This document shows, piece after piece, positions 37,673 to 41,181 of a stretch of 64,000 bases of DNA (its first letter is position 1; each line of letters starts with the position of its first letter). The notes under the pieces were generated by a model. It did not search any database. It worked only from the letters and a program-made list of their open reading frames with translations, and had not been told where the DNA came from. The DNA is from Rhodospirillales bacterium (GTDB taxonomy: Bacteria > Pseudomonadota > Alphaproteobacteria > Rhodospirillales > Defluviicoccaceae): positions 1,252 to 65,251 of the forward strand of contig JAEULG010000025.1 of the NCBI GenBank assembly GCA_016793875.1, in the 5' to 3' direction. The translations under genes were made by a program, and so were the position numbers.

Positions 37673-39031
37673 ATGCCTCGCGACATGACCACCTCGGCGC
37701 GGACGCTCGACGTTGCCGTCATCGGCTCCGGCATCTCGGGGATGGCGGCGGCTTGGCTGCTGGCCGGGCGGCACCGCGTCACCGTCTACGAGCAGTTCGA
37801 CCGCATCGGCGGCCATGTCAACACGGTCAATGTGGAAGGACCGGATGGCCCCATTGCCGTCGATGCCGGCTTCACCGTCTTCAACGAGATCAATTATCCT
37901 AACTTCGCGGCGCTGTTGCGCCACCTTGGCGTTGCAACACGCTCCACCCGCCTGTCGATCGCCGCCTCGATCGAGGATGGCGCCATCGAGTACGCGATGC
38001 CTTGCATCGCCCGCATGTTTGGACGCCCGGCCAATCTGCTGCGGATCGGCTTCTGGCGGATGCTACGGGATATTCGCCGCTTCCATCGCCGCACGCGGGC
38101 GTTGCTTACCCAGGCAGGTGCCGATGATTTGACATTAGGCAATTATCTTTCCAACAGCGGCTACTCAGACGAGTTCATCGAGCATCACCTCCTGCCGGTA
38201 GCGGCCACCATCTGGGCGACCGCACCGGGCGAGATGCGCAGCCACCCGGCCATCGACTTCGTCCGTTTTGCTTCCAGTCACGGCTTCCTGCCGATGAGTG
38301 GGCGCCGCCGCAAGTGGCGTACGATCGATGGCGGCAGCCACACGTACATGAGCCGCCTGGTGGCATCGCTCGCCGGACGTATCCGCACGCGCTGCGCCGT
38401 CGTCCAAGTGCGCCGCCATCCCGAGGCCGTCATGGTGACGGATGAGGACGGCGAGAGCCGCCGCTACGATCATGTCGTTATCGCCGCCCATGCCGATGAG
38501 ACGGTGGCGATGCTGGGCGATGCCAGCTTCGATGAGCGCCGGCTGCTGGGTGCCTTCACCTACAGCAGCAATCGCGCGGTGCTCCACCGCGATGTGCGGC
38601 TCATGCCGCGCCACCGGCGCCTGTGGTCAAGCTGGAATTACGTCAGCGGCCGCGACACCCGCCGCCAGCGTCAGCGCGTTTGTCTTACCTACTGGCTGAA
38701 CGCCCTGAGCGCCGTCGACCCCCGCGTACCCCTTTTCCTCACCCTCAATCCGCACCGCGAACCCGATCCCGCGCTCGTCGAATCCACCTTCTACTACGAC
38801 CATCCCAGCTTCCATCCCGCGGCGCTGCGTGCGCAGCGGGAACTGCCCATGCTGCAAGGCATTCGCAACACATGGTATTGTGGCAGCTACTTCGGGAACG
38901 GCCTGCACGAGGACGCGCTGGTCTCGGGGCTGGCGGTCGGTGAGGCTCTCGGCGGGATCCGGCGGCCGTGGACGACGGCAGCCGCGGCGGAGCCGCTGGG
39001 AAGGTTGAGGGTGCACCGACAGCGCGGCTGA
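37673..39031 (+). CDS. NAD(P)/FAD-dependent oxidoreductase (amine-oxidase-like fold)
   Basis: VAVIGSGISGMAAAWLL...VTVYEQFDRIGGH dinucleotide motif. 452 aa. Confidence 0.8.
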   Translation: MPRDMTTSARTLDVAVIGSGISGMAAAWLLAGRHRVTVYEQFDRIGGHVNTVNVEGPDGPIAVDAGFTVFNEINYPNFAALLRHLGVATRSTRLSIAASIEDGAIEYAMPCIARMFGRPANLLRIGFWRMLRDIRRFHRRTRALLTQAGADDLTLGNYLSNSGYSDEFIEHHLLPVAATIWATAPGEMRSHPAIDFVRFASSHGFLPMSGRRRKWRTIDGGSHTYMSRLVASLAGRIRTRCAVVQVRRHPEAVMVTDEDGESRRYDHVVIAAHADETVAMLGDASFDERRLLGAFTYSSNRAVLHRDVRLMPRHRRLWSSWNYVSGRDTRRQRQRVCLTYWLNALSAVDPRVPLFLTLNPHREPDPALVESTFYYDHPSFHPAALRAQRELPMLQGIRNTWYCGSYFGNGLHEDALVSGLAVGEALGGIRRPWTTAAAAEPLGRLRVHRQRG

Positions 39032-39181
39032 CTGCCGATTCGGCCTGGATCTTGCCGAGCGGCGCGCTCGTGTAGGTCGACAGCGGCATTTTTGTCGCCG
39101 GCAGTTCGTCCCAGTCGGCGCTCCTGCCGGCGAGGGTGTCCCGGCAGCACCATGGCAGGGACCGACCCGCAGATCCGCGGC

Positions 39182-39406
39182 TCAGATCTGCACTTCCCAC
39201 CGATGGTAGCCGTTGCTGTCTGTGCCGGGGCAGGGATTCGTCGCCCCACCGGCGGCGGCGCCGCAACGGACACAGAACACGATGCCGCCGTTTGGCTCGG
39301 TGGTGACCCACTGGTGCTGGCCGTTGCTGTCGGTGCCGAGGCAGGGATTGACCGGCGCTCCCACCAAACAGCCGCAGCAGGCGCAATAGGTAACCTTGCT
39401 CATCAT
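39182..39406 (-). CDS. 74-aa Cys-rich protein built from two copies of a Cx2C...NPCxGTDSNGxHxW module; function unknown
   Basis: MMSKVTYCACCGCLVGAPVNPCLGTDSNGQHQWVTTEPNGGIVFCVRCGAAAGGATNPCPGTDSNGYHRWEVQI. GGAGGG lies directly upstream of the tandem ATGs. The ORF track extends it to 39508 across the tRNA, which is impossible. Confidence 0.55.
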   Translation of the reverse strand: MMSKVTYCACCGCLVGAPVNPCLGTDSNGQHQWVTTEPNGGIVFCVRCGAAAGGATNPCPGTDSNGYHRWEVQI

Positions 39407-39478
39407 CCCTCCGCTTGATCGTTCGCGACGATAACCGCCGCGTCTCGATCGGGTTCCACAGGCGACCCATGGCGAGGA

Positions 39479-39554
39479 TGGTGGGCCCGGCAGGACTCGA
39501 ACCTGCAACCAGACCGTTATGAGCGGCCGGCTCTGACCATTGAGCTACGGGCCC
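39479..39554 (-). tRNA. tRNA with anticodon CAT (elongator Met or lysidine-type Ile2), CCA encoded
   Basis: The reverse complement folds as GGGCCCG-TA-GCTC-AATGGTCA-GAGC-C-GGCCG-CTCATAA-CGGTC-TGGTT-GCAGG-TTCGAGT-CCTGC-CGGGCCC-A-CCA (76 nt). A G1:C72 pair excludes the initiator. Confidence 0.9.
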
Positions 39555-39795: not shown

Positions 39796-41181
39796 TCAGG
39801 CCGGGCGCAGAATTTGCAGCAGCCTGGTGAACGGCGCGGCGTCCCGCGCCAGGCCGAGCGACGTCGAGAAGTGACCGGCGGGGGCGCGGAAGACGTTCTC
39901 CGCCGGCAGCTTCCACGCCTCCACCAGGGCTTCGCCGCCGGCGGTCAGCGTGACGTCGTCGCTGCGGCCGACGACGACGACGATGCGCGCCGGGTCCACC
40001 GCCGGCTCGGCGAGCGGGTCGAGCAAGGGGCGCCAGCGATTGATCTCGGCCACCGACCAGCCGCCGGCGCGAATGGCCCGGGGCACCCCCAGCTCGCGGG
40101 TGAGGCTGCCCTCGAAGGTCACCGCCAGCAGCGAATGCGACGGAGCCACCAGGAACAGCGCGTCGGGCCGCATCTCGGCCGGCCAGTGGCGCGCTACCAC
40201 CGCGGCGAGCTGTGCCGTGAGCGCCCCAAGGCTGACGCCGCCGAGGCACACCGGGCCGCCGCGGGTGGCCCGTGCCCAGGCCACCAGCCGGCCGAGCTCG
40301 ATCACGTGGGCGTGGAAATAGTCGAGCAGGCCTCCCGGTCCGCCGGCAAAGATCGGCTCGCCGCCATAGGTCCCGGGCACACGTCGGCGGCCGTGCCAGG
40401 GCCCCTCTGGACGAATCACCCGGATGCCGGCCCCCAGCAGCCCGGCCAGCGAGTGGCGGGTCGCCCCGGTGAATTCGGTCTCCATGGCAATGCCGTGGGT
40501 GAACACCAGCGACGGGCCGCGCGGCGGGCCGGCCCCGTCCGTGGCCAGCGGTGCGGCGACGCGCGCCCACGCTGGCCCCGGGGCCACCGGCGTTGGTGCC
40601 GGGAAGCGCAGCCAGCCTTCGACGCCGAGGGATGAGAGGAAACCCCGCGAGACCTCGATATCGGCGAGGTTGAAAGCGTCGGCGAAGGCCTCATCGGGAC
40701 GGTCGAGCCGGCCCGCATGCCGCTGCGCGACCTGCTCGGGCGCCTCGATGTGCCAGGCCACCGCCGGCAGCGGCGAACGCACATGAAGTGGCACCAGGGC
40801 GCCGCGCAGGTTGCCGAGCGCCATGGCGGCGCGCAGCCGCGCTGCCTCGAAGGAGGTGTGGGCGGGACCATTGCCAAAGAAGGCAGCTTCCCAGGCGGTA
40901 TCGGCGGTGACCAGCGCCGCCTTGCGTTCCTCCACCCGCGCCAGGATTCCCGGCAGCAGGCGGCGGGCGAAGGGTCCGCAGGGAATCGCCTCCATGAACC
41001 GCTCGGGCGAGCCGGCCGCCGCCATCGCCGCCGCCCAACCCCGCGACAGCGGAAAATACCACTGCGTCAGCATCCGCAGGGCGGCCGCATCGAACCATGG
41101 CAGCATTAGCAGCCCGCCGCTGGCGCGGCGGATCACGCGTGCGAAGCCCTCCCGCGCGAAGCGCGGACGGCGCGGTGGCAT
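39796..41181 (-). CDS. Alpha/beta hydrolase with about 200-aa N-terminal extension
   Basis: Nucleophile elbow GVSLGA and a preceding HG-type segment (LVFTHGIAME). 461 aa. No specific family recognised. Confidence 0.7.
   Translation of the reverse strand: MPPRRPRFAREGFARVIRRASGGLLMLPWFDAAALRMLTQWYFPLSRGWAAAMAAAGSPERFMEAIPCGPFARRLLPGILARVEERKAALVTADTAWEAAFFGNGPAHTSFEAARLRAAMALGNLRGALVPLHVRSPLPAVAWHIEAPEQVAQRHAGRLDRPDEAFADAFNLADIEVSRGFLSSLGVEGWLRFPAPTPVAPGPAWARVAAPLATDGAGPPRGPSLVFTHGIAMETEFTGATRHSLAGLLGAGIRVIRPEGPWHGRRRVPGTYGGEPIFAGGPGGLLDYFHAHVIELGRLVAWARATRGGPVCLGGVSLGALTAQLAAVVARHWPAEMRPDALFLVAPSHSLLAVTFEGSLTRELGVPRAIRAGGWSVAEINRWRPLLDPLAEPAVDPARIVVVVGRSDDVTLTAGGEALVEAWKLPAENVFRAPAGHFSTSLGLARDAAPFTRLLQILRPA

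Follow-up and report, generated by a model that had tools for sequence, protein, structure and literature searches.

The characterised protein that comes closest to the product of the gene studied here, by a weak resemblance, is Fin (YabK), an anti-sigma-F factor of Bacillus that binds zinc and the beta' clamp helices of RNA polymerase. Fin is small and serves to switch sigma-F off (PMC5942855). On the side of regulation, the closest system is the EcfG (ECF15) regulon, for which the published promoter motif is GGAAC-N17-20-GTT, enriched within 100 bp of coding sequences (CDS), and in which many targets are small hypothetical proteins (PMC6599016). According to PMC3892343, EcfG is confined to Alphaproteobacteria, the class to which our host belongs. 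Here, we describe a small gene on a stretch of 64,000 nucleotides from a Rhodospirillales bacterium (GenBank contig JAEULG010000025.1, positions 1,252 to 65,251), to which we refer as the window. The gene encodes a Cys-rich mini-protein of 73 amino acids (aa) that consists of two similar modules. We find that it is a real, selectively maintained and transcribed gene. Our best reading, to which we assign a probability of about one half, is that its product is a soluble, cytoplasmic mini-protein with two zinc sites that is induced by stress and acts by binding a partner.

Conservation, composition and RNA all bear on the reality of the gene. The same protein, or forms that are 89–96% identical to it, is encoded in metagenome-assembled genomes (MAGs) of Rhodospirillales and on numerous metagenomic contigs, which come from wastewater, sludge, bioreactors, biofilms and compost. 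Among the six distinct orthologous DNA sequences, the pairwise number of synonymous substitutions per site (dS) between lineages is 0.34–0.75, and the ratio of nonsynonymous to synonymous substitutions (dN/dS) is 0.05–0.15. The GC content at third codon positions (GC3) is 0.81 in the frame of the mini gene and 0.80–0.87 in the neighbouring genes. Four of the other five frames have a GC3 of 0.55–0.60, and the remaining one reaches 0.82 but contains two stop codons.

Expression, which the initial annotation had named as a point to be checked, is visible in six metatranscriptome runs from four studies (X28, X33, X29, X35, X36 and X37), where assembled contigs cover the mini gene with a maximum span of 39099–39406. 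In these six runs, the depth over the flanking amine-oxidase and 461-aa genes is about zero. The 72-nt spacer that separates the mini gene from an upstream tRNA gene is likewise uncovered, and the transcript thus starts between the tRNA and the start codon. An expressed variant contig of an orthologue shows 14 differences from the window, 12 of which are at third codon positions. At position 39067 of the window, one base is missing in the RNA and DNA contigs of several runs, and substitutions are present at 39038, 39077 and 39149. All four sites are found in the non-coding stretch between the mini gene and the convergent amine-oxidase gene; the variation at 39038–39149 is strain-level and limited to the intergenic 3' region.

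The open reading frame (ORF) on the minus strand at 39182..39406 translates as MMSKVTYCACCGCLVGAPVNPCLGTDSNGQHQWVTTEPNGGIVFCVRCGAAAGGATNPCPGTDSNGYHRWEVQI, followed by a stop codon. The initial annotation had this ORF right and counted 74 aa from its first ATG (39404–39406). This is an extra in-frame codon: the second ATG (39403) is the start in all orthologues and in database gene calls, which results in 73 aa. The Shine–Dalgarno sequence GGAGGG that had been noted in front of the gene is present, and a purine-rich GGAGG block is retained upstream in the orthologues. The protein has a mass of 7.5 kDa and a pI of about 6. As stated before, it has no signal peptide: the N-terminus is not hydrophobic, and no hydrophobic segment was seen elsewhere in the mini-protein.

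Eight Cys and two His are present among the 73 residues of the window protein, and six of these Cys and both His are invariant. Across the family, the invariant residues are C7, C10, G11, G15, C21 and H30 as well as C44, C47, G52, C58 and H67. The candidate ligands are C7, C10, C21 and H30 in module 1 and C44, C47, C58 and H67 in module 2; C9 (the fourth Cys of the window protein) and C12 vary in the wider family. The consensus of a module is [aromatic]-C-x2-C-G-x3-G-x5-C-(P)-x7/8-H-x-[W/F], and CxxCG-x3-G-x5-C-x7/8-H is kept in every module of four distant relatives. The initial description of CxxC...C...H modules with three Cys and one His each (C3H) is confirmed, as these positions are invariant in every family member found, and the conservation of the module, which had also been left to be checked, is borne out by the homology searches. 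Within the 64 kb, a degenerate pattern of the module core has exactly two matches (39210–39238 and 39321–39349), compared to 0.01 expected.

The four distant relatives come from an exhaustive HMMER search of 1.84 billion representative proteins, which returned 13 matches. Three of them have two modules, namely P0020 (74 aa), P0024 (70 aa) and P0027 (72 aa). The fourth, P0022 (181 aa), has three modules after an N-terminal extension of about 80 residues, which is hydrophobic and coiled-coil-like. We rejected the long matches P0015, P0016, P0018 and P0025 as spurious: these are repeat proteins without the Cys pattern that match in many low-scoring stretches, some of which are 'TDSNG/TDANG' motifs. 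The rejection covers these four proteins; the long matches P0019, P0021, P0023 and P0026 were left unread. In a word-indexed search of 5.8 billion clusters, the single-sequence query detected its own cluster alone, and the single-sequence and profile queries together detected the own cluster and three relatives, nothing beyond the exhaustive HMMER set. Scans of the mini-protein and the four distant relatives against Pfam, NCBIfam, PHROGs and PADLOC gave nothing at threshold. Furthermore, no relative was found by tblastn against 50,697 phage and 72,556 plasmid records. These searches place the mini-protein in a very rare, unnamed family and agree with the earlier statement that it could not be assigned to any family, as no curated library matches at threshold.

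The relatives are found in diverse settings. The gene of P0022 lies at L024 6001–6546, on a 48-kb Logan contig of SRR5889002 with a lambda-like prophage of 65% GC (GpA terminase, portal, ClpP-type protease, capsid E, tube and tape measure), where it lies, in the manner of a moron, between the genes for the head and those for the tail and is encoded on the other strand. The first 16 nt of the P0024 gene are also the last 16 nt of a gene for a 353-aa protein (L014 189–1447) with an Mrr_cat restriction-endonuclease domain at its N-terminus, and a DUF4258 gene is located nearby. The overlap suggests translational coupling of P0024 with the Mrr_cat gene. The P0020 gene sits among housekeeping genes, and the P0027 gene is preceded by a 440-aa gene of no recognised family. 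We considered the latter as a shared neighbour and rejected it, since it shows no relation to the 461-aa gene that precedes the mini gene in the window. Apart from Mrr_cat, the neighbours of the distant homologues gave no family assignment.

Next to their conservation, the similarity of the two modules to each other is of interest, as the initial annotation had described them as recently duplicated. In the window gene, the modules are identical at 15 of 33 residues and at 57 of 99 nt. The 30-nt cores are near-identical, as had been reported (28/30), and the core identity across orthologues is 23–28 of 30. We reject a recent duplication because the tandem layout is common to relatives that are only 35–40% identical, on contigs of 35%, 38% and 57% GC, and because the identity at third codon positions over the whole module is just 16 of 33 (48%). 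The GTDSNG codons that are identical between the modules are preferred codons ending in G or C. The likeness of the cores at the DNA level is as expected from residue constraint together with codon bias (GC3 of about 0.81). Only 9 nt look homogenised. For Asn-Pro-Cys, module 2 of the window lineage uses AAT CCC TGC, which is the state of module 1, and module 2 of the other four lineages uses AAC CC(A/T) TGT. The window thus differs from these lineages by three linked synonymous differences, one of which goes against the GC bias. An economical, though not proven, explanation is possibly a gene-conversion tract of about 9 nt in the window lineage.

When comparing modules between proteins, we find that in each of five proteins a module is closest to its own partner (45–71% identity) and not to the equivalent module elsewhere. 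The one exception is module 2 of the window, which is nearer to module 1 of P0024 (55%) than to its own partner (48%). Between the third Cys and the His, the modules of one protein are near-identical, and those of different proteins differ. This likeness within proteins points to concerted evolution, repeated independent duplication or selection for two equivalent binding surfaces. The representative library furthermore contains a one-module form of the close cluster, the 36-aa P0017 (MSKVTYCASCGRLVGAPVNPCLGIDSNGFRYWEAQI), which is without the His. Unequal recombination between the two near-identical cores seems to have produced it, but it may instead be an assembly artefact.

To characterize the upstream region, we aligned the DNA of five orthologous loci, in two of which a stretch of 1.7 kb with further genes separates the tRNA from the mini gene. 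Loci that differ in their upstream genes become homologous just before TGGAACCC. Past this block, there is a variable stretch of about 16 nt and then an invariant GTT(A/G)TCGTCGCGA. The GGAAC and GTT blocks are the only invariant upstream blocks in the five loci, and the spacer between them varies. In the window, the candidate -35 element GGAAC is located at 39453–39457 and the candidate -10 element GTT at 39433–39435; the conserved block runs on to about 39423 (ATCGTCGCGA). The mini gene of the window has, within about 100 bp upstream of the CDS, the GGAAC-N16/17-(C)GTT element that is expected for a member of the EcfG regulon. The element GGAAC-N17-GTT lies 26–29 nt before the start codons, and the one in the window is the sole occurrence in the 64 kb on both strands. 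Judging by where the element lies, how it is oriented and how exactly it coincides with the conserved blocks, we infer that an EcfG-type promoter drives the mini gene. A scan for sigma-70 promoters and intrinsic terminators found nothing, the predicted RNA structures of the two flanks do not stand out from those of shuffled sequences (z = -0.7 for the 5' flank and -1.6 for the 3' flank), and Rfam reported the tRNA alone in this region.

The modules contain an aromatic-CxxCG knuckle, a feature that characterises zinc ribbons, and the sub-threshold library matches are mostly to zinc-ribbon families that match this knuckle. The protein most likely binds two Zn(II) via six Cys and two His. An AlphaFold2 model based on a deeper alignment reached medium confidence (predicted local distance difference test, pLDDT, of 65.8) and has one short strand at either end of each module (residues 4–7 and 32–34; 42–44 and 69–72). 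Such an arrangement of strands is compatible with a pair of loop-like modules that are each closed by one metal; no fold match was found. By analogy to Fin, an alternative wiring may be that the CxxC pairs share one metal and the C...H pairs share a second.

We propose that the two Zn(II) would stabilise a small scaffold of beta strands. Between its third Cys and its His, each module has a loop (GTDSNG in the window) that is lineage-specific but the same in both modules of a protein, as would suit a recognition surface. Its own EcfG-type promoter would switch the gene on under stress or in stationary phase. The protein would then act stoichiometrically, by binding a macromolecular partner, and would not be an enzyme. 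The sole candidate partner with any support may be RNA polymerase, by a faint analogy to Bacillus Fin: a profile search against 177,635 PDB sequences matched Fin (PDB 5msl) with E=0.004, aligning profile positions 3–47 to Fin residues 5–48, and the single-sequence search reached Fin with E=0.8. Whereas we infer zinc binding, EcfG dependence and action by binding, RNA polymerase as the partner is speculative.

Several points weigh against the proposal of a stress-induced zinc mini-protein with a binding partner. Metal binding is a prediction from the sequence, and the second ligand pair (C...x7/8...H) departs from the canonical knuckle; the ligands may be wired within modules or crossed between them. 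By chance, 0.8 copies of GGAAC-N17-GTT would be expected in 64 kb. The RNA evidence consists of assembled contigs that carry neither strand nor exact 5' ends, and in three other runs the whole region is evenly covered, including contigs that join the tRNA and the gene; these runs are uninformative, since DNA carry-over or read-through may account for them. The genomic neighbourhoods of the distant homologues have nothing in common. Regarding Fin, hhalign against 13 Fin proteins gave a probability of 28% over 33 columns, the Pfam model of Fin (PF10955/DUF2757) is not listed in the Pfam scan even at E<=10, and Fin has four Cys only, without the third Cys of the modules.

The features of the locus are listed in Table 1.

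Table 1. Coordinates of the mini gene and associated features in the window.
Feature	Position	Strand	Basis
CDS of the mini-protein (73 aa, stop included)	39182..39403	minus	ORF and translation; second-ATG start common to orthologues
Shine–Dalgarno sequence GGAGGG	39407..39412	minus	Read from sequence
Module 1, residues 4–33, VTYCACCGCLVGAPVNPCLGTDSNGQHQWV	39305..39394	minus	Alignments of close and distant homologues
Module 2, residues 41–70, IVFCVRCGAAAGGATNPCPGTDSNGYHRWE	39194..39283	minus	Alignments of close and distant homologues
Candidate EcfG/extracytoplasmic function (ECF)-type promoter, GGAACCCGATCGAGACGCGGCGGTT	39433..39457	minus	Conservation and position
tRNA gene, CAT anticodon (called Met)	39479..39554	minus	ARAGORN and Rfam

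The tRNA that had been noted 72 nt away is called by both programs, and its 3' end is located 72 nt upstream of the first ATG on the same strand. In all lineages, the gene order is rpoD, a gene of 446–461 aa, the tRNA and then the mini gene. The 446–461-aa gene (window 39796–41181, minus strand; L003 2267–3607; L018 2178–3563) has no Pfam match at threshold and faint alpha/beta-hydrolase signals (ABHD18, E=0.005; RcgR lactone hydrolase, E=0.001). The segment between the tRNA and the promoter has nothing inserted in the window; it contains PadR and DUF72 in L001 (1294–2814), L020 (1532–3042) and L021, a YCII gene in L022 (3335–3748) and a called 40-aa ORF in L018 and L019. In L001, L020 and L022, the genes in this segment take up 0.4–1.7 kb. 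The downstream genes vary as well, with an amine oxidase and LysE in one case and a CLC channel and an aminotransferase in another. The neighbourhood is thus plastic, which is not unusual beside a tRNA.

All six lineages have the mini gene, while other DNA around it is gained and lost. Because the mini gene and its promoter are constant and of native composition while their surroundings vary, the mini gene is not cargo of a genomic island; no search was aimed at direct repeats of the tRNA 3' end. The tRNA is a syntenic neighbour that is not required for the mini gene. The initial annotation had suspected an insertion hotspot at the tRNA. This applies to the stretch between the tRNA and the gene, which is variable among relatives, but not to the mini gene with its promoter. 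In agreement with that annotation, none of the genes called up to 4 kb away in both directions is an integrase, none was seen in the variable segments of L001, L020 and L022, and no modification or export genes accompany the mini gene.

A disruption of the frame in relatives, which had been named as a point against the gene, was observed in one lineage, as opposed to six lineages under purifying selection. In the Rhodospirillales MAG contig JAXMDR010000054.1 (L002 1957–2139), only the 3' half with module 2 is left, with three deletions (1, 2 and 1 nt). Unrelated DNA replaces the promoter and module 1, and the remnant adjoins a CLC-channel-like gene, as in L018-type loci. We read this copy as a decayed relic, that is, a loss in one lineage.

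Three further observations concern tRNAs. The acceptor stem of the tRNA with the CAT anticodon reads GGGCCC, including C4 and C5, and in this the tRNA is more like tRNA-Ile2 (with a lysidine-modified CAU) than the elongator tRNA-Met. Many Logan contigs break inside this tRNA, about 104 nt upstream of the mini gene, as is the case for repeated or widely shared sequence. Lastly, ARAGORN called a tRNA-Arg(GCG) at 39935–40015 (plus strand) inside the 461-aa CDS of the other strand, where the Rfam tRNA model is silent; this call is probably a false positive.

The prophage setting of P0022 suggests a different role, in which the protein is an accessory in the conflict between phages and hosts (e.g. 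an anti-restriction or defence-modulating zinc mini-protein) that moves with phages and defence islands and has been kept here. The moron-like position of the three-module P0022 within a block of structural genes is consistent with this, and so are the overlap of P0024 with the stop of an Mrr_cat-like gene, its vicinity to DUF4258 and its very weak Pfam match to the Lar restriction alleviation family (E=1.2). Furthermore, the family is sparse and scattered, with four clusters in 5.8 billion from organisms of 35–68% GC, and the copy in the window is found in a variable region beside a tRNA. We nevertheless consider such a role unlikely, as neither the mini-proteins nor their neighbours match PADLOC or PHROGs and the tblastn search of the phage and plasmid records remained blank. 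Within the alphaproteobacterial clade, the gene is stable in position, native in composition and constrained, and it has a stress-type promoter and no adjacent defence gene. A combined scenario, which we regard as quite improbable, would be a class of tandem C3H zinc proteins spread by phages, of which the copy in the window lineage was recruited to the EcfG response; it would dock in the manner of Fin onto the beta' clamp helices via two equivalent loops and bias sigma competition under stress.

The same stress-type promoter would also suit a protein without a macromolecular target, which serves as a buffer or chaperone for zinc or other thiophilic metals or as a zinc-thiolate redox switch and would be made under stress to retain or give off metal. 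Zinc-thiolate sites in small proteins can sense oxidation, and the many invariant Cys and His as well as an expression well above that of the neighbours in sludge, digester and biofilm communities are in line with metal handling. This alternative is nonetheless doubtful: with about 10% Cys, regular C3H spacing, conserved aromatic and Gly residues and predicted strands, the modules look structural and not like metallothionein clusters. There is no Zur or other metal-regulator box and there are no linked genes for metal transport, with neighbours that vary, and loops that are lineage-specific yet the same within a protein suggest a recognition surface. Such loops might also be expected if the protein were the precursor of a Cys-rich peptide that is made on the ribosome and then modified or secreted, with two core repeats, since the repeats of one protein are near-identical in their C-terminal loop, like those of multi-core precursors; small size, Cys-rich repeats and the long N-terminal extension ahead of the three repeats of P0022 fit as well. 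Yet none of nine genomic contexts contains a radical-SAM, YcaO, lanthipeptide, protease or exporter gene, the flanking genes of the orthologues differ, and there is no signal- or leader-like sequence, with just 3–6 residues ahead of module 1. The scaffold of invariant His, aromatic and Gly residues is moreover typical of a folded metal site, which makes a peptide precursor very improbable. Lastly, high GC content gives rise to long ORFs in several frames, for instance 39092..39418 (plus) and 38745..39470 (minus), and the mini gene might be a chance ORF or reflect a signal on the opposite strand. This reading is effectively refuted by the low dN/dS and the GC3 in this very frame, by distant homologues that keep the Cys/His pattern and by the RNA coverage of the gene's own.

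Small proteins are routinely missed or left unannotated. The mini-protein is real, constrained and transcribed above its neighbours in wastewater, digester and biofilm communities, and its family has a handful of members among billions of predicted proteins. New here are the evidence for selection and transcription, the wider rare family including a member in a prophage, the concerted similarity of modules and the conserved candidate for an EcfG-type promoter. The family thus presents a testable case, with C3H occurring twice as a putative metal-site pattern, EcfG as a candidate regulator and the likeness of modules within proteins as an evolutionary puzzle.

When comparing the mini-protein to known systems, we find similarities to several groups of proteins. 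Zinc-ribbon mini-domains (PF13240, PF12773 and PF13408) and small micro-proteins with two zinc fingers share with it the aromatic-CxxCG knuckle that ends a beta strand, and they are likewise tandem, small and soluble. Zinc ribbons have a second CxxC knuckle, whereas the mini-protein has C-x7/8-H in this place. The best Pfam zinc-ribbon score of the window protein is 13 bits (PF13408, cut-off 25.3); P0022 reaches 17–19 bits with PF13240 (cut-off 25) and PF08273 (cut-off 23), which also misses the gathering cut-offs. Overall, the matches to these families score 13–19 bits against cut-offs of 23–27, and no structural match was found. Bacterial metallothioneins (SmtA/BmtA type) are also small and rich in Cys and His. 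Metallothioneins bind their metals in clusters, are far denser in Cys and have hardly any conserved scaffold. In contrast, the mini-protein, in which metal binding is putative, has two regular C3H sites with conserved aromatic and Gly residues, and no sequence match to metallothioneins was found. The C1 domain of protein kinase C, with its cross-braced zinc site (H-x12-CxxC...), locally resembles the segment between the modules, H-x-[WF]-x8-10-[FY]CxxCG. The matches are weak and not significant (P0020 to C1_1, E=0.038; C1 chains in PDB, E of 0.4–1.5), and C1 domains differ in having eight ligands in one domain of 50 residues, another spacing and a eukaryotic distribution. By analogy, the resemblance raises the possibility that ligands may be shared across modules.

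The likeness to the EcfG regulon concerns regulation and not the protein family. The element GGAAC-N17-GTT is found within 30 nt of the start, like in high-scoring EcfG targets of Sphingomonas melonis (PMC6599016). Fin, in turn, is similar to the mini-protein in size (76 vs 73 aa) and also has no signal peptide. Its two CxxC pairs are located at distances from the ends that are equivalent to those of C7/C10 and C44/C47. The N-terminal 33 residues align, with YYCRHCGVKVGS...STDSLGFQH in Fin and TYCxxCGxLVGA...GTDSNGQH in the mini-protein, whereas the second half of Fin does not. Unlike Fin, the mini-protein has an extra invariant Cys and His in each half; the His at the module position is not invariant in the Fin family, and Fin is confined to spore-forming Firmicutes. 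We thus regard the link to Fin as a weak lead and not as family membership. If the link is true, zinc mini-proteins that bind RNA polymerase would extend from sporulating Firmicutes to the stress response of Alphaproteobacteria. If it is not, the mini-protein would still represent a new small, putatively zinc-binding scaffold.

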